From: a virus
Lineage: Duplodnaviria > Heunggongvirae > Uroviricota > Caudoviricetes
Virus record (IMG/VR): IMGVR_UViG_2645727539_000006
Direction: 5' to 3' (one strand)
Length of the DNA stretch: 18,011 nucleotides
The notes under the pieces are model-generated. The model saw only the letters and a program-made list of their open reading frames with translations. It made no database searches and was not told the origin of the DNA. Made by a program: the position numbers and the translations under genes. Positions within the stretch are counted from its first letter, which is position 1. Each line of letters begins with the position of its first letter. Shown in pieces: positions 13,640 through 18,011 of the stretch.

Positions 13640-13746
13640 CCTTAATAAGGCATCTGTAACTGAAACAATCCGCATATTGATAATATATTGACAGGCATCA
13701 TTGCTGTCTGTGAAAAATAAGTCTCTACAAACATATAAGGCCTTTT

Positions 13747-13787
13747 AGCCAGCGTCTTCTTTTTCAGGTCAGTCGCTGGCTTTTTTT
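13747..13787 (+). terminator. plus-strand hairpin plus T-run (module 2 of the pair), abutting the nanS stop codon
   Basis: AGCCAGCG (13747-13754) ... CGCTGGCT (13774-13781) followed by TTTTTTT; preceded by TTGACA at 13689-13694 and shares flanking sequence with module 1. Confidence 0.45.
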
Positions 13788-13788
13788 A

Positions 13789-15639
13789 TTATGCTGCCGG
13801 TGCATTTATCTCCAGCATCAGACTTTCTATCTCAACGCCATACGCTGCATTTTTTGTAACATCCGTCAGCGTCAGCGCATTCAGTCCCAGTGTCAGACTG
13901 TCTTTTATAACCTGGAATGCCGGGCCAGCCACTCCATTCAGTTTCGGAGTAACCGTGGCACTGCCGGCGGTGAACACCAGCTCCAGCGTCTGCCAGTCGT
14001 TACCGTAATCGCCGAACTCCCCCAGCTTCGTGTTTCCGGCTTTCCTGTGATGCATCAGATTCACTCTGCCGTCAGTGGTCTGAGTGAAGTACGACATCAG
14101 GAACGGATTACCGGTACCCGTCATCGCCACACCATCAGGAACGGGAGCATCCGTATACAGATAAATCCCCAGCCCGAACTGATTGTTGGTCAGTGCGCCT
14201 GACAGGCGGAACTTACAGGTCAGTCTGCCGCCCTGTGTCAGCAGGGTAATTGCGTCATCCACCGGATGCGTCAGGGACCAGGTTTTATTGCTCTGCTTGG
14301 TGATCTTAAATACACCATCTGACAACTGAATTCCGCCATCCTTAATGCTCCAGCCCTGCGCAGCAGCCTCTCCGGCTGCCGGCAGCAGGGAGATTGTGCG
14401 AACGGACGTATCTGCAGACGGACCCGATGGCGTGTTGCCGCCGGGCGAGGGTTTGATTTCCGGTGCCTTACCACTGATGAAGGCTGAGGTGCGCCCGGCT
14501 GCGTTCAGAATAGCGGTTGCCAGACGATCCGGAATAATGCTCCTGCGCGCCCATGAACTGAAATGTGTCGGGCGGTTTGATGATACCTGGTTTCCATTCG
14601 TTCTCGATGCCGCACCGTAATATCCTGATGCCGGAATATCCGGATCTTCTGCCGGCGCGTTAGTGGCGGTATTGACGCCGTTACCATCTGTCATGAAGGG
14701 CACAAAATAAACGCCCTCACTCTCCCTGTTTTTATACCCGCCGTACACGGTGTCGTACTGGGTAGCGTATGTATTTTTCCAGTAATACGTCGTGTCACCA
14801 CAAACCCACGGCACATCTGCAGCACTGCCACCATGGCACTGCGCGTTAAACACGGAGAGGTCAGCACGAAACTGTGTCAGCATGGCTGTAAACAGCGCAG
14901 GTTGCTGTGCGTGGGTGGCGGCGCTCATGTCAAACTCACCCTGCATCCAGCAGACGGCCAGCAGAACGTTTTTGGGATTTTTCTGCAATGCCGCTTTTGT
15001 GCGGGAAATCAGATCCTGATATAACGGCTTGCCCACCCCCCAGCGTGCCGAATCCTGACTGGCCCCCGTGGACTCGCTGAATGTCCCCTCCGCGCCCTGG
15101 GTAAATGCCGAACCACCACGACAGCATGGTACCAGCAGGATCCCCGCGTTATTCGGGATATACGGGAGCAGTTTTTTGGCAATATGTAAACCCTGACCGA
15201 CACAGCCGTACTGCCCTTTGCTCAGGTCAGCCCTCGGATGATTCAGCGTACTCATATCCTGCACATCATGCAGACAGTGGTCAGCCGGAATAATATCGTT
15301 ATATCTGCAGGCAGCCCCGCCCGGCGTCACTGTACTGCGGCGCGCCAGCTGTTTAATGCGCGGATCCGGAGCATCGTATGAATCCGGCAGCGGAAGCCCT
15401 TCACCGTAAGCCATGGCATTGGACTGCCCGGCCAGTACGATGACGTAGTACCAATCCGGCTCAGATGAAGGGCCGACCTGTGGCTCTCCTTCAATAGCCA
15501 CCGCCTGCATCAGTGTGTACGGCGTAATGGCAACCGGTCCGCCGTATGGCTGCCAGCCCTCTTTCAGTTTGTGTGTCAGCTTTTCCGCAAGGTCTGACGG
15601 CGACGCCGCCCTGACAACATCGTAATGTTTAATCGACAT
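13789..15639 (-). CDS. nanS-p: prophage sialate O-acetylesterase NanS-p-like protein (DUF1737 N-domain + SGNH/SASA esterase + C-terminal domain)
   Basis: 616 aa; N-terminal MSIKHYDVVRAASPSDLAEKLTHKLKEGWQPYGGPVA is DUF1737-like; YYVIVLAGQSNAMAYGE carries the GQSN catalytic-serine motif of sialate O-acetylesterases; sits just upstream of the holin as in Stx and other lambdoid prophages. GGGAG Shine-Dalgarno before the ATG at 15637-15639. Confidence 0.75.
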   Translation of the reverse strand: MSIKHYDVVRAASPSDLAEKLTHKLKEGWQPYGGPVAITPYTLMQAVAIEGEPQVGPSSEPDWYYVIVLAGQSNAMAYGEGLPLPDSYDAPDPRIKQLARRSTVTPGGAACRYNDIIPADHCLHDVQDMSTLNHPRADLSKGQYGCVGQGLHIAKKLLPYIPNNAGILLVPCCRGGSAFTQGAEGTFSESTGASQDSARWGVGKPLYQDLISRTKAALQKNPKNVLLAVCWMQGEFDMSAATHAQQPALFTAMLTQFRADLSVFNAQCHGGSAADVPWVCGDTTYYWKNTYATQYDTVYGGYKNRESEGVYFVPFMTDGNGVNTATNAPAEDPDIPASGYYGAASRTNGNQVSSNRPTHFSSWARRSIIPDRLATAILNAAGRTSAFISGKAPEIKPSPGGNTPSGPSADTSVRTISLLPAAGEAAAQGWSIKDGGIQLSDGVFKITKQSNKTWSLTHPVDDAITLLTQGGRLTCKFRLSGALTNNQFGLGIYLYTDAPVPDGVAMTGTGNPFLMSYFTQTTDGRVNLMHHRKAGNTKLGEFGDYGNDWQTLELVFTAGSATVTPKLNGVAGPAFQVIKDSLTLGLNALTLTDVTKNAAYGVEIESLMLEINAPAA

Positions 15640-15725
15640 CGAATTTCTCCCGTGTAGAGGAACAGAGTTAAAAAGCCGGAAGCGGAATCAAATCACAGGA
15701 TGACCATCTGCCAGTGGCAGGTCAT

Positions 15726-15752
15726 AAAAAAAAGGCTGCGCAATGCGCAGCC
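15726..15752 (-). terminator. strong intrinsic terminator between the cargo gene and nanS-p
   Basis: Minus strand GGCTGCGC-ATT-GCGCAGCC (8-bp GC-rich stem) followed by 8 T; unidirectional (A-run precedes it on the plus strand). Confidence 0.7.
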
Positions 15753-15937
15753 AGAACTCACAAGGAAAATGATAAAAGGAATAACACTAGTGATGTACGC
15801 ATGGCGCCTCCCGCTAAGTTCTGCAATGATCAAACAGAACTCGCTACGTGCCCTTAAAACTCGATCATTTAGCCCCTCCAAGGAGGATTCACCATGCGGT
15901 TGATTTTTTAATAAACAGTAAACAAAAAAGTCAAGAA

Positions 15938-16048
15938 TTATTCATTCTGTTCTTTCATCATCGGCCACAGCAATACCACAATGCCGCAGACCAGAGCGCC
16001 ATCAGTCAGTACCAACATTATCCTGCTGGTGAAATCCATCATCACCAT
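15938..16048 (-). CDS. hypothetical small hydrophobic peptide (~33-36 aa), below the ORF-track cutoff
   Basis: Minus-strand ATGGTGATGATGGAT...TAA reads M(VMM)DFTSRIMLVLTDGALVCGIVVLLWPMMKEQNE, a single predicted transmembrane helix with a charged tail. No convincing Shine-Dalgarno; could be non-coding. Confidence 0.2.
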   Translation of the reverse strand: MVMMDFTSRIMLVLTDGALVCGIVVLLWPMMKEQNE

Positions 16049-16181
16049 CACTAAAAGCAGGATCACAACAGCAAGCAGACACAGTTTATAAAACAATGTT
16101 CAGAAAACGCATTCAGCATGCCTAAGGTTCTATTCCTACGAATAGCCAACTTGCAACTTAAAATATTATTTATGCAGCCAA

Positions 16182-16922
16182 TTAAATTCTGGTCCTTACA
16201 ATATCAACCTGAAGATTCTTATCTTGTGCTGATTGATAAATGACAAACCTTTTACTACCTGCATTGAAAGAAGTAGACAAAACCAGACAATTATCATAAC
16301 GAGCAAGAACATAATACCAACCATCATTATAATTAATCATTTCATATTCTTTCTTAAACTGTGGTTTGTAATATCCTGTCAGAAATGAAAAAAGCCAAAA
16401 ATATGCCACAAAAGCAATCATCACAATCTCAAAAAAATGTTTTTTTATAAATGGCTTATCATAGAAGCATGATACCGATAAAAATCGCCCATAAGATCTT
16501 ATCGAAATTGTAACCGCCAGCGCAATCGCTGCTGACAGTAGCAAAAGAGGTACCTGAATCTTCTGTCTCAATATAGAAAACTCAATAATTGCCGGCACAA
16601 ACAATAATTCCACAGCAAAATAAAGGCGAAATACATTTAGCTCTTGCATAGAATGTTTTCTTTTCACTGCGAAAAAGAATACAACACCAATACCCCAACC
16701 GATAAGAAATATAGCAATGACGATAACTGCAAAAAATAAACTTCTGGCAACATCATCAACACCTGCACCTACAATCCACCATGGGAAGCCGTAGTAAAAA
16801 GAAGTACCCCATCCATAGAAATAAGCACTCCCCCATCCATAGAAATAAGCACTCCCCCATCCAAGGCATCCCATGTAGGCAATAAAAAGTGAAGAACTCC
16901 TGAGCAGCGCACCATCCTTCAT
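16182..16922 (-). CDS. unrecognised polytopic membrane protein with N-terminal Gly/aromatic tandem repeats (phage cargo gene)
   Basis: Long ORF (ORF track 16182..16964) in visibly AT-rich DNA; likely start is the ATG at 16920-16922 (MKDGALL...) preceded by GGGGTGG. Has GWGSAYFY-GWGSAYFY-GWGTSFYY repeats, at least four hydrophobic helices (e.g. LFFAVIVIAIFLIGWGIGVVFFFAV; VPLLLLSAAIALAVTISI) and a ~55-aa soluble C-terminus. No family recognised from memory. Confidence 0.55.
   Translation of the reverse strand: MKDGALLRSSSLFIAYMGCLGWGSAYFYGWGSAYFYGWGTSFYYGFPWWIVGAGVDDVARSLFFAVIVIAIFLIGWGIGVVFFFAVKRKHSMQELNVFRLYFAVELLFVPAIIEFSILRQKIQVPLLLLSAAIALAVTISIRSYGRFLSVSCFYDKPFIKKHFFEIVMIAFVAYFWLFSFLTGYYKPQFKKEYEMINYNDGWYYVLARYDNCLVLSTSFNAGSKRFVIYQSAQDKNLQVDIVRTRI
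16807..16863 (-). repeat. perfect 24-bp tandem duplication (plus part of a third copy) inside the membrane-protein gene
   Basis: Plus strand CCCCATCCATAGAAATAAGCACTC at 16807-16830 and again at 16831-16854, followed by CCCCATCCA; encodes the GWGSAYFY repeats. Confidence 0.9.
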
Positions 16923-16960
16923 AACCACCCCAATACAAGATGATAACATTGGCTTACAAC

Positions 16961-16989
16961 TCATAACAAAAGCAATTCAATGCCGTCAA
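16961..16989 (-). promoter_or_regulatory. candidate sigma70 promoter for the cargo gene (weak -10)
   Basis: Minus strand TTGACG (plus 16984-16989), 17-nt spacer, TTATGA (plus 16961-16966). The -35 is good, the -10 is poor. Confidence 0.25.
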
Positions 16990-17061
16990 GAGGTTACAGG
17001 CTAAAAAAACTCTATTACATAGCAGCCAGCATGTTTACCGTACAAGTACAACTCAGGGCAT

Positions 17062-17085
17062 AAAAAAAACCCACTCGGCAGCGGG
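17062..17085 (-). terminator. intrinsic terminator ~50 nt downstream of the Q-like gene (candidate tR')
   Basis: Minus strand CCCGCT-GCCG-AGTGGG (6-bp stem with one G-U pair) followed by 8 T. Confidence 0.5.
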
Positions 17086-17121
17086 TTTATACATTTTTTA
17101 CAACATACCAAATTTGCATGA

Positions 17122-17150
17122 AGTATATGGCTTTTAATCCAGTTTTGCAA
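17122..17150 (-). promoter_or_regulatory. candidate late promoter pR' overlapping the 3' end of the Q-like gene
   Basis: Minus strand TTGCAA (17145-17150), 17-nt spacer, TATACT (17122-17127); a -10-like TGGTATGTT lies in the early transcribed region (possible sigma-dependent pause); the predicted ~50-nt transcript ends at the terminator at 17062-17085. Confidence 0.35.
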
Positions 17151-17907
17151 TATTTTGCTGTAAAAATGCTGCCTTTTGTTTTGAACGTGTTCTCGTCACA
17201 AGCAATAAAGCATCACTATCAAGCTGTAGAAAAATGTGCTTCATTGCAACCCAGCGTTCAGTAAATGTCTCGGACCAGTTTTTTGTTGTCACTCCCACCA
17301 ATGATGCCAGTGTCTGGTATTCATAGGCCTCACGCCCTGCAAGTTCGCTCTTCACATCCTGTGCAGCCAGCCAGATTAACGTCTTCAGGCGATCCAGTGT
17401 CTTACCTGCAATTTTTCTGTTACTTAACAAATCTTTAAACTCGCTCCATGCCCATTGCGTTATGGTGACCTGATGCCCCCATCGAACGCTTTCGCTGTAA
17501 CACCAAAGCAACCATGCTTTCTGATGTTCATCGAGAGACAAAACCGCGCGGCGCCATGAAGAGGTTGAGAATTCAACCGGGCTGACCAAAGCAATGGATG
17601 AACCTTTTGCGTACGACTGCTTACCGGAAGTCGGCGTATTATCCAGCGTAATCATCTTGCCAGTTACCACATCCAGAATGCGCGGCTTCTTTCGTTTGTA
17701 TGTACCAGTATCAAATTGTGCATGCTCCTGCCAGGCTTCGAGCTGGCCTTTCGTTGCTCCGTTCAAGTCAGCAGTAGCTGCCATAAGTTGCTCACGAACA
17801 TACTGTAAATATTGGGTATTCATGCAGTAAATCCTTTCTATATTTTGGCATAATTCTTCAACATTCGGTAATCGTTCAAAACCGAATCGGGGAAACGACA
17901 TAAGCAC
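17134..17907 (-). CDS. putative late-gene antiterminator Q-like protein (assigned by position and size; family not confirmed)
   Basis: 229-257 aa ORF depending on start (GTG at 17905-17907, or the ATG at 17821-17823 with an AAAGGA Shine-Dalgarno, MNTQYLQYVREQL...). It is the last gene before the promoter/terminator module and the lysis region. No zinc-finger Cys pairs as in lambda Q, so it would be a different Q family (lengths near 250 aa occur in some prophage Q homologs, from memory). Confidence 0.4.
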   Translation of the reverse strand: MLMSFPRFGFERLPNVEELCQNIERIYCMNTQYLQYVREQLMAATADLNGATKGQLEAWQEHAQFDTGTYKRKKPRILDVVTGKMITLDNTPTSGKQSYAKGSSIALVSPVEFSTSSWRRAVLSLDEHQKAWLLWCYSESVRWGHQVTITQWAWSEFKDLLSNRKIAGKTLDRLKTLIWLAAQDVKSELAGREAYEYQTLASLVGVTTKNWSETFTERWVAMKHIFLQLDSDALLLVTRTRSKQKAAFLQQNIAKLD

Positions 17908-18011
17908 AGGAGCCCCCAGCGACAGCGAAGGAGTTCTGATATATAAGACTCAGACATCATTCATTCCCCGGTTCTCCAATATCTGTTTCACTCATCATCC
18001 ATAACTACCTG

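Follow-up and report, generated by a model that had tools for sequence, protein, structure and literature searches.

A 434-type accessory cassette in the Shiga toxin slot between Q and nanS-p carries a TfpB-family gene with a possible role in lysogenic conversion

In Shiga toxin phages, the stx2AB or stx1AB genes occupy the slot that follows Q, pR' and tR' and precedes nanS-p and the lysis genes, with an sRNA of the STnc100 family just 3' of them; in Stx2 phages this sRNA lies 75 nt past stx2B (PMC12370729). PasD, an sRNA of EPEC E2348/69, is described as related to STnc100 in structure, without a link by BLAST, and in NC_049952 the gene pasD is placed immediately before that for the esterase (Zhu et al., 10.64898/2026.05.13.724894). 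In phage 434, the corresponding order is a Q82-like gene, a terminator, the gene CPT_434_68 for a 'putative membrane protein' (UMO75332.1, GenBank OL657226), TciB/DUF3927, an esterase and a pinholin. Outside phages, STM1630 (SL1344_1560) of Salmonella Typhimurium lies in an AT-rich islet, is transcribed from a promoter of its own whose -10 box in the start site region is defined, and shows both induction in macrophages and co-regulation with SPI-2 (10.1101/689075, 10.1101/450098, PMC2639726). Its deletion gave a hypermotile phenotype in a screen (PMC4219756), one that is missing from those which clean deletions reproduced (PMC4534456), and did not reduce intramacrophage replication (10.1101/689075).

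We analysed a stretch of 18,011 nucleotides from a Caudoviricetes virus (IMG/VR record IMGVR_UViG_2645727539_000006; hereafter the window), in which positions 15938-17010 had been proposed by an earlier note, made from the sequence alone, to be a cargo insert at the locus equivalent to that of stx. This placement was borne out. The main gene of the block is located between Q and nanS-p in phage 434, in phage 2B8 and in about 13% of complete E. coli genomes, and similarity to Stx phages (blastn) picks up again only at the start of nanS-p, at ~15652. On comparing the locus across related prophages, as that note had suggested, the block was found in 434-type phages and other cargo (stx) in Stx phages. 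E. coli genomes with the block often show several matching places each. Positions 13700-18011 (4.3 kb) of the window are 99.4% identical to phage 434, the Q gene being 99% identical to its 'Q82-like' gene, and the two share the gene order given above. Certain Stx phages have tRNA genes at this position; none were found in the window. The products of the two kinds of cargo are unrelated, one being a secreted AB5 toxin and the other a membrane protein; by analogy with stx, dependence on Q read-through at induction would be expected for the gene described here too. The features of the locus are collected in Table 1.

Table 1. Features of the window in and around the slot between Q and nanS-p.
Feature	Position	Strand	Evidence
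Q antiterminator gene (left border of slot)	17134..17907	-	Pfam PF06323 Phage_antiter_Q, E 1.7e-91
pR'-like late promoter TTGCAA-17-TATACT, overlapping the end of Q	17122..17150	-	consensus scan
Intrinsic terminator, read as tR' (stem 17088-17067, 9 pairs, and T run)	17058..17088	-	hairpin scan
Candidate sigma-70 promoter P1, TTGACG ... TGT-TATGAG	16989-16984 and 16965-16960	-	read by eye
Candidate sigma-70 promoter P2, TTGTTA-18-TATCAT	16969-16940	-	consensus scan
TfpB-family (PF27470) predicted inner-membrane protein gene, 246 aa	16182..16922	-	family alignment, PHROG 1521 E 1e-151, AF2 model
Tandem array (2.4 copies) of a perfect 24-nt unit that encodes GWGSAYFY	16807..16863	-	repeat scan
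Gene for a DUF3927/TciB-like small membrane protein (52 aa with two hydrophobic segments)	15938..16096	-	Pfam PF13064, phrog_1470
Putative PasD/STnc100-family sRNA and terminator (stem 15752-15734, then T8)	15723..15927	-	Rfam RF02076 match
nanS-p sialate O-acetylesterase gene (right border of slot)	13789..15639	-	Pfam DUF1737, SASA and DUF6645

The block had been described as AT-rich against GC-rich flanks. Its GC content is 37.6%, compared with 51.7% over the whole window, and in sliding windows it is clearly distinguishable from this average: among 1073-bp windows across the 18 kb the minimum lies at start 16151, only 4% are at or below 38.5% GC, and the block is the lowest kilobase of all. 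The main open reading frame has a GC content of 36.4% (GC3 30%), and nanS-p one of 55.6% (GC3 60%). The flank on the Q side, upstream, is of intermediate GC and not GC-rich (Q gene, 45.2%), and the description therefore holds for the block but not for this flank. Being a compositionally deviant insert between conserved phage modules which is swapped for other cargo in relatives, the block resembles a moron. The view of it as cargo was right as to its accessory nature but left two components unnamed, since the block is a three-part accessory cassette made up of the TfpB-like gene, the 52-aa DUF3927/TciB-like gene and a putative PasD/STnc100-family sRNA.

The 52-aa reading frame matches PF13064 with 53 bits (cut-off 25; E 3.4e-14) and phrog_1470 with an E value of 2.5e-17, and the phage 434 annotation names the gene TciB. 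We considered DUF3927 as an obligate partner of the TfpB-like gene and rejected this, because the two co-occur only in the 434-type block and DUF3927 is degenerate in E. albertii. The match of the sRNA to RF02076 (STnc100) is full-length, with 41.4 bits and an E value of 8e-8, and lies below the gathering score of 47; over the whole window no Rfam family reached its gathering score. The entire spacer between DUF3927 and the esterase gene is ~98% identical to phage 2B8 (NC_049952), a comparison made at the level of the record and not with the PasD sequence. A 62-aa reading frame at 15693-15881, annotated as a membrane protein in phage 434, overlaps the sRNA and its terminator and is uncalled in RefSeq; we treated it as non-coding.

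The block was also said to be bracketed by hairpin terminators. Both hairpins were recovered with their T runs, but neither is best explained as a bracket of the cargo gene. The number of terminator-like sites (two, each with a T run) is no more than in shuffled sequence (mean 1.6), and so their meaning was drawn from their position and not from their count. A promoter-like site (TTGCAA-17-TATACT) overlapping the end of Q precedes the upstream hairpin, which is most plausibly tR', the late-operon terminator that Q overrides, and not an insulator. The promoter itself is probably pR', as it directly follows Q. A terminator is annotated at the same place in the phage 434 record, and an Rfam match to STnc240 at 17058-17127 was not significant (28 bits, gathering score 55). 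The downstream hairpin is better read as the terminator of the sRNA, and hence also as the downstream terminator of the cassette. Promoter-like sites found by scanning were no more numerous than in shuffled sequence. The homologue on ETEC plasmids has ~70% overall identity, and its similarity to the window sets in near the -35 element and spans both P1 and P2.

The main reading frame is a genuine gene, and selection on it is strongly purifying, with a dN/dS of 0.057-0.084 when the window copy is compared with those of E. albertii and Escherichia sp. From the family alignment its true start is the ATG at 16922; longer in-frame starts are available at 16964 and 16949, and RefSeq adopts the latter. 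A product of about 246 aa with a Gly/Trp/Tyr-rich N-terminal tandem repeat had been predicted, and we confirmed both, the array in the protein being GWGSAYFY-GWGSAYFY-GWGTSFYY-GFPWW. One 8-residue GWGSAYFY unit is extra in the window copy: the other aligned family members are 237-238 aa long and do not have it, and the O26 copy of the region is shorter by 24 nt. Judging from the perfect 24-nt unit that encodes it, the extra unit is an in-frame duplication. A 255-aa protein is on record from nine contigs, which is the length expected from the duplication allele together with the upstream start. Since the duplication falls within the most conserved motif, it might impair the window copy.

The earlier note did not recognise the protein, and here it is superseded. 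By tblastn the product is 96.7% identical to CPT_434_68 of phage 434 and to WP_001302581.1 of E. coli O26:H11 11368, which are essentially the same gene, differing from the window in the absence of the extra GWGSAYFY unit. Neither the phage 434 nor the RefSeq record gives the gene a function. By similarity the protein is a member of Pfam PF27470 (TfpB) and PHROG 1521, a conserved family that is functionally uncharacterised; the gene is already catalogued in phage 434, Pfam and PHROG, and is not new as a gene. The PF27470 assignment was made through homologues, which at identities of up to 96-97% all carry a precomputed match to this family, and through similarity to Moraxella TfpB, and not through a direct HMM score of the window protein. 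The tblastn matches to TfpB of M. bovis and M. lacunata had E values of 1e-17 and 6e-14, respectively, with ~27% identity over residues 9-244, and a profile search recovered members from Neisseria and Pasteurellaceae at E values of 1e-28 to 1e-41. An aromatic and glycine-rich N-terminal motif, several TM helices and a small C-terminal beta domain are common to the relatives (alignments of 29-53 sequences, hydropathy, AF2 model); in Moraxella TfpB these take the form A-Y-x-Y-G-W-G ... Y-H-G-Y-P-W-W ... IARSL, several TM helices and a C-terminal Y-Y-I-L beta domain. The Moraxella genes differ in their location, among pilin cassettes beside piv, with no prophage setting.

The family is very small: at the 50% identity level, 1.84 billion proteins contain 72 representatives of it. 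Those members that have a source name come from animal-associated bacteria. The family takes its name from an uncharacterised Moraxella reading frame in the invertible pilin region. We know of no function for Moraxella TfpB, and because that protein is itself functionally uncharacterised, membership provides a name but no mechanism. Searches of local Pfam (which does not include PF27470), NCBIfam and PADLOC returned nothing for the main protein, the sole hmmscan match being a chance one to DUF4501 (E 0.24); in PHROGs it matches only a label of 'unknown function', and a sequence-profile search of the PDB gave only chance matches (E > 1). We found no literature on the protein accessions, PF27470, the phage 434 genome or Moraxella tfpB.

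A polytopic membrane protein with a short C-terminal domain had been proposed, and hydropathy and an AlphaFold2 model of medium confidence agree on this. Hydropathy identifies four strong hydrophobic segments and a Gly/aromatic N-terminal segment. A first model, built with 47 close homologues, was poor (pLDDT 55); when distant relatives were added the pLDDT rose to 73, with a pTM of 0.67. This model places helices at 23-44, 55-87, 92-119, 124-147 and 163-189, and a five-stranded beta domain at 192-243; loops rich in K/R lie at 87-98 and 143-164. The predicted topology is thus one of about five TM helices with the N-terminus and the two K/R-rich loops inside, which would place on the periplasmic side residues 31-57, the most conserved aromatic/glycine motif (A-Y-x-Y-G-W-G ... 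Y-Y-G-F-P-W-W ... ARSL) and the C-terminal beta domain of ~55 residues. In the wide alignments invariance is limited to A, Y, G and P residues, and neither an enzyme signature nor a fold match was found for the protein. Since no conserved catalytic-type residues were seen, it most likely serves in binding or as a scaffold on the periplasmic side of the inner membrane, and not as an enzyme.

As judged from its relatives, the main protein is not phage-specific. On ETEC plasmids a relative lies ~870 bp from eltAB in divergent orientation, and 106 Shigella plasmids carry one, including pWR501 (pINV). Salmonella has its relative between sseJ and steB, also in subspecies arizonae and diarizonae; in Citrobacter rodentium it is beside lpxR at the syntenic adh-trg locus, on E. 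coli chromosomes between iroBC-like genes and bor, and in Glaesserella parasuis beside cdtC-cdtB-cdtA (Pfam CDtoxinA on two reading frames). One relative adjoins an exporter pair of the HlyB/HlyD type. Those of Pasteurellaceae and of a Neisseriaceae MAG are found among housekeeping genes, and many family members have no toxin gene nearby. STM1630 belongs to the same family, and was equated by gene order, not by sequence comparison, with the member P0075, which is ~44-46% identical to the window protein; it differs in that it is a chromosomal gene with a fixed place between sseJ and steB, where phage genes no longer remain. To our knowledge, no member of the TfpB family has an established phenotype. 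These neighbourhoods suggest a conversion gene which benefits the host and outlives the decay of the prophage; the closeness to toxin and effector genes may also reflect mere shared residence on mobile DNA.

We hold it to be somewhat better than an even chance that the locus as a whole is a 434-type accessory cassette in the stx slot whose main gene is a lysogenic-conversion gene for an inner-membrane binding or scaffold protein. The gene would then benefit the bacterial host in animal-associated niches. In the lysogen it would be transcribed from a candidate sigma-70 promoter of its own just upstream, and upon induction it would receive additional transcription by Q-modified polymerase running from pR' through tR', as for stx. 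The morons bor/iss, lom and lpxR offer a parallel, being of foreign composition, dispensable for the phage, located in the envelope and retained in decayed prophages; they differ in that they are outer-membrane proteins with known phenotypes, while an inner-membrane protein is predicted here. Members of the family adjoin bor and lpxR. The gene was present in 3 of 50,697 phage records, and according to the 434 GenBank record the region is non-homologous, or replaced, in the viable variant 434B; this replacement and the rarity of the gene among lambdoid phages suggest that it is dispensable for the phage.

Some inner-membrane proteins block the entry of phage DNA or kill the infected cell, as known from P22 SieA, T4 Imm, HK97 gp15 and lambda RexB. 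Superinfection exclusion or abortive infection of this kind, by a product of the lysogen, would suit a polytopic protein with a small predicted periplasmic domain, encoded by an AT-rich gene with a candidate promoter of its own at a typical moron position, and carried by phages, plasmids and islands; the adjacent DUF3927 gene falls in a PHROG labelled, by similarity, 'TciB-like ... resistance to colicin'. We nevertheless consider it unlikely, as neither the TfpB-like nor the DUF3927 protein matched a defence model of PADLOC-DB 2.0 (E <= 0.1), and a general anti-phage function would be expected to spread wider than such a tiny, animal-associated family. In Salmonella enterica, moreover, the gene has one chromosomal locus, which is fixed across the subspecies and flanked by two genes for T3SS effectors, and it is subject to SPI-2 co-regulation (PMC2639726). 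A late-phase phage protein, made only from pR' after antitermination by Q and acting on the membrane in the lytic cycle, for instance to time lysis, to modulate the holin or to prepare the membrane, would fit the position of the gene as the first after pR'-tR' in the same orientation as nanS-p and the holin, endolysin and spanin genes. Its relatives, however, also occur on plasmids and among chromosomal housekeeping genes, far from any genes for lysis, most lambdoid phages do without the gene, it is replaceable in 434B, and its composition is sharply unlike that of the surrounding late genes, all of which renders this role quite improbable.

Much the same low probability attaches to a companion of toxins or effectors, which would aid toxin release or vesicle loading or shield the envelope of the producer. 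The neighbours eltAB, cdtC-cdtB-cdtA, sseJ and steB and the HlyB/HlyD-type pair speak for it, as do the stx slot occupied here and the place of STM1630 in the SPI-2-co-regulated set (PMC2639726). Against it, the export routes concerned (T2SS, Sec/vesicles, T3SS, T1SS and phage lysis) are unrelated, so that a single mechanism is hard to picture; many members have no toxin neighbour, the window has no toxin gene, and decayed prophage cargo regions would yield such co-location anyway. That the family as a whole forms a class so far overlooked, of inner-membrane proteins which are not enzymes and which accompany horizontally acquired toxins and effectors in pathogens of mucosal surfaces, is, in our estimate, distinctly unlikely. 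If true, these companions would be kept with LT, CDT, SseJ/SteB, LpxR, Bor/Iss and the Stx slot as prophages decay, and could take a direct part in the release of toxins or effectors or help to fit the envelope of the producer to the host. Most improbable of all is an accessory factor of type IV pili which acts on a pilin, in E. coli perhaps PpdD/HCP, in the manner of TfpY/FimB. Members of M. bovis, M. lacunata, M. equi and M. oblonga do lie in or beside the invertible pilin region, near piv-like and pilin genes, but a pilin signature within 4 kb occurs only at the Moraxella loci, in none of the other 40 loci scanned and nowhere in the window. TfpY-like proteins have three TM helices and a large periplasmic domain, in contrast to the four to five helices and ~55-residue C-terminal domain found here, and the work describing them does not mention TfpB (PMC11841053). 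As pilin genes are neighbours of family members in Moraxella alone, we rejected a pilin-accessory role as a general explanation.

Since the slot between Q and lysis carries Shiga toxin in lambdoid phages, any other occupant of it is a candidate lysogenic-conversion factor. The cassette is present in the classical laboratory phage 434, which grows on E. coli K-12, and its deletion and the phenotyping of lysogens should therefore be easy. Should there be no phenotype, the gene would be one more uncharacterised moron; otherwise, such work could yield the first function for a small pathogen-linked family.

The block at 15938-17010 has a GC content of 37.6%, against 51.7% for the window, and in sliding windows the lowest-GC 1.07-kb stretch of the 18 kb starts at 16151, which bears out the AT-rich cargo described in the earlier note. 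The ORF of its membrane protein, the main gene of the block, has 36.4% GC (GC3 30%), and the flanking genes nanS-p and Q have 55.6% and 45.2%, respectively. In alignments with 25-46 homologues the ATG at 16922 was identified as the family start, and neither of the longer in-frame alternatives (16949 and 16964) was conserved. Against copies differing at 19-27% of synonymous sites dN/dS was 0.057-0.084, indicating strong purifying selection on the main gene. As a correction to the earlier note, the cassette has three parts, namely the main gene, a DUF3927 gene and a putative downstream small RNA (sRNA). The DUF3927 gene lies beside the main gene only in the phage 434-type block, being degenerate in E. 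albertii and absent elsewhere, and was therefore ruled out as its obligate partner.

Features of the cassette and its flanks
Feature	Coordinates	Strand	Remarks
Promoter TTGCAA-17-TATACT	17150-17122	-	Consensus match; overlaps the end of Q
Terminator-like hairpin with T run	17088-17067	-	About 35 nt downstream of TTGCAA-17-TATACT
Candidate promoter TTGACG, TATGAG	16989-16984 (TTGACG)		18-nt spacer with extended -10 'TG'
Candidate promoter TTGTTA-18-TATCAT	16969-16940		Consensus scan
Main ORF	16182-16922	-	246 aa
DUF3927 gene	15938-16096		52 aa; clear member, E 3.4e-14; PHROG labelled TciB-like
Rfam STnc100 match	15723-15927	-	Full length; 41.4 bits (gathering score 47, not reached); E 8e-8
62-aa ORF	15693-15881	-	CPT_434_70 'putative membrane protein' of phage 434
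Terminator-like hairpin	15752-15734	-	Strong; ends the STnc100 match

The main protein gave no match in the local Pfam, NCBIfam and PADLOC libraries; in PHROGs it matched phrog_1521 ('unknown function', E 1e-151). In a large protein database all its homologues carry PF27470, named TfpB, and one E. coli fragment is annotated 'protein tfpB'. The protein, which had earlier been considered unrecognised, thus belongs to a named family and its gene is already catalogued, being annotated in phage 434, although the family itself is uncharacterised. It is also small and associated with pathogens; an exhaustive profile search of 1.84 billion representatives yielded 72 proteins, many of them fragments. 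Those with a source name belong to Escherichia, Shigella, Salmonella, Citrobacter, Cronobacter, Klebsiella, Enterobacter, Yersinia and Mangrovibacter; to the Pasteurellaceae (Aggregatibacter, Glaesserella, Pasteurella, Avibacterium, Gallibacterium and Actinobacillus); to Neisseria and Conchiformibius; and to Moraxella. In Moraxella bovis the relative, an ORF of 261 aa, has an inverted pilin C-terminal cassette on either side; in M. lacunata its neighbours are a piv-like gene of the IS110 family and a complete pilin gene. We take this to be the classical tfpB position of the Moraxella pilin-inversion literature.

Hydropathy analysis revealed four strong transmembrane segments (58-86, 97-118, 122-142 and 163-185) and a weaker Gly/aromatic segment at about 9-30, with K/R-rich loops at 87-98 and 143-164. 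An AlphaFold2 model, built with distant relatives in the alignment (pLDDT 73, pTM 0.67), shows five helices, at 23-44, 55-87, 92-119, 124-147 and 163-189, followed by a beta domain of five strands at 192-243. By the positive-inside rule, the protein more probably spans the membrane five times from an N-terminus on the inside; the most conserved stretch (YYGFPWW..G.D.ARSL) would then, like the C-terminal domain, lie in the periplasm. In the widest alignments the only invariant or nearly invariant positions are A, Y, G and P, and the protein is therefore unlikely to be an enzyme. Foldseek searches with the model found no specific match in the PDB (E >= 0.66) or BFVD (E >= 0.05).

A perfect 24-nt tandem repeat of 2.4 copies (16807-16863) encodes GWGSAYFY-GWGSAYFY-GWG, followed by the related units TSFYY-GFPWW. 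This in-frame 24-nt duplication gives a third unit of the GWGSAYFY type within the family's most conserved motif, and the extra unit was found in none of the other aligned members. The region is 24 nt shorter in the prophage copy of E. coli O26:H11, and identity of at least 99% across it was seen in only 2 of 711 matching E. coli records. A 255-aa protein, whose length matches the duplication allele when the upstream start is used, is recorded on 9 contigs.

In lambdoid phages Q is followed by pR' and then by tR', which Q-modified polymerase passes. From their position and this established biology, we infer that TTGCAA-17-TATACT and the hairpin that follows it are pR' and tR'; the phage 434 record also annotates a terminator at this position. 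The hairpin had been thought to bracket the cargo from upstream, but read as tR' it provides no insulation, and would instead, once the prophage is induced, let the late transcript include the cargo, as it does stx. The predicted pR'-tR' transcript of roughly 55-60 nt presumably arises in a comparable way to StxS RNA in Stx phages. The initially transcribed region of pR' contains a TGGTATGTT element, which could be a sigma-dependent pause site, and the only Rfam match there, to STnc240 at 17058-17127, is weak (28 bits vs a gathering score of 55). Similarity to the homologue on enterotoxigenic E. coli (ETEC) plasmids, with about 70% nucleotide identity overall, starts at about CCTCTTGACG and is lost upstream of there; both candidate promoters of the table fall within the stretch of similarity. 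Promoter-like sites in the scan were no more numerous than in shuffled sequence, and the candidates upstream of the ORF are only suggestive of an own promoter.

The downstream hairpin, likewise taken earlier for a bracket of the cargo, is better read as the terminator of an sRNA, given the STnc100 match that it ends. PasD is a structural relative of STnc100 described by Zhu, Shabalina and Storz, who locate pasD in phage 2B8 (NC_049952) immediately 5' of the gene for the sialate esterase (bioRxiv 10.64898/2026.05.13.724894). Since the window and 2B8 are about 98% identical over the whole spacer upstream of the esterase gene, we read 15723-15927 as a putative PasD-type sRNA with its own terminator. 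It lies immediately 3' of the DUF3927 stop codon; a TTGACT hexamer at about 15934-15929 could be its own -35 element, or processing of the cassette mRNA may release it from the 3' end. The 62-aa ORF overlaps both sRNA and terminator, has no RefSeq call and is unlikely to be a real gene. Stx2 phages have a copy of STnc100 75 nt downstream of stx2B (PMC12370729), and by blastn the similarity of the window to Stx phages resumes only at about 15652, the nanS-p start. The cassette therefore fills the stx slot between tR' and nanS-p, in support of the Stx-equivalent location proposed earlier.

From 13700 to 18011 the window shares 99.4% identity with classical phage 434 (OL657226) and 99.0% with a prophage of E. 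coli O26:H11 11368. Phage 434 has the same gene order (Q82-like antiterminator, terminator, CPT_434_68, TciB (DUF3927), a 62-aa 'putative membrane protein', SASA esterase and pinholin), and its CPT_434_68 'putative membrane protein' shows 96.7% identity to the window protein. The O26 copy is hypothetical protein WP_001302581.1 in RefSeq. The nanS-p-type esterase gene is annotated as frameshifted in the O26 prophage (locus L001, 4136-6000) and is intact, with 616 aa, in the window. A 1.5-kb cassette query matched 706 of 5426 complete E. coli genomes (678 with at least 80% coverage), with a median of 6 matching places per genome, and among 50,697 phage records the main gene was found in 434 and 2B8 only. 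The cassette is thus frequent among E. coli genomes, but few sequenced phages have it. A 3-kb contig labelled MAG: Veillonella sp. (L021) is 97% identical to the E. coli prophage block of the window, most likely a binning error and not a Firmicute copy.

Outside 434-type prophages the family gene is found repeatedly as cargo on its own. In Yersinia enterocolitica it directly follows Q. On porcine ETEC plasmids such as pUMNK88_Ent (L049 2987-5714; L010-L014) it lies about 870 bp from eltAB and divergent from it, flanked by IS elements and near STb and EAST1; its product is 57% identical to the window protein, and the locus may be what is left of a lambdoid Q-to-lysis cargo region that moved with LT. 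IS elements also flank it on Shigella plasmids, 106 of which match, including pCP301 and the S. flexneri invasion plasmid pWR501 (L048 6001-6717, annotated hypothetical protein). In Citrobacter rodentium (L051) it adjoins a split lpxR at the adh-trg locus, which is syntenic with the Salmonella locus described below; in phage 434 and the O26 prophage lpxR is the gene before Q. In E. coli chromosomes (L052-L055, 1-6945) the variant P0045 has iroB/iroC-like genes on one side and, on the other, a lambda Bor homologue encoded on the opposite strand, in what looks like a decayed prophage late region with its conversion genes kept. In Glaesserella parasuis (L028 3974-7017) it adjoins cdtC and cdtA, between which an ORF of 277 aa occupies the position of cdtB, the two outer ORFs having Pfam CDtoxinA matches; in a Mesocricetibacter MAG (L026 4888-8454) it adjoins an HlyD/HlyB-type exporter pair, and in other Pasteurellaceae it lies among housekeeping genes. 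The simplest reading is that the lambdoid late-regulatory region has long carried this gene as cargo, and that on prophage decay it is retained along with other conversion genes.

In Salmonella (L003 3349-6247; L024, L025) the family gene lies between sseJ, presumably STM1631, and an ORF of 133 aa that we take for steB; the locus is common to subspecies enterica, arizonae and diarizonae. As steB is STM1629 (PMC4219756), gene order suggests that the family member is STM1630. STM1630 belongs to a gene set co-regulated with SPI-2 virulence regulators (PMC2639726) and has its own promoter, whose -10 box is disrupted by two SNPs that silence the gene in ST313 strain D23580 (10.1101/689075; 10.1101/450098). 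Its deletion caused no drop in intramacrophage replication (10.1101/689075), and a hypermotile phenotype seen in a screen (PMC4219756) is absent from those reproduced with clean deletions (PMC4534456). These published findings suggest that family members are transcribed autonomously in non-phage settings.

Retention together with conversion genes in decayed prophages and the low dN/dS suggest that the gene benefits the bacterium, and speak against its serving phage growth. A late phage function seems improbable to us. We lean slightly towards the main protein being a host-beneficial, non-enzymatic inner-membrane conversion protein, which would be expressed autonomously and also by Q read-through. 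That it serves in exclusion or abortive infection seems to us unlikely, and a companion of toxins or effectors, such as those adjoining it in ETEC, Glaesserella and Salmonella, is about as doubtful as a late function. A pilus accessory factor is very improbable; type IV pilin signatures were found within 4 kb of a family member at the Moraxella loci only.
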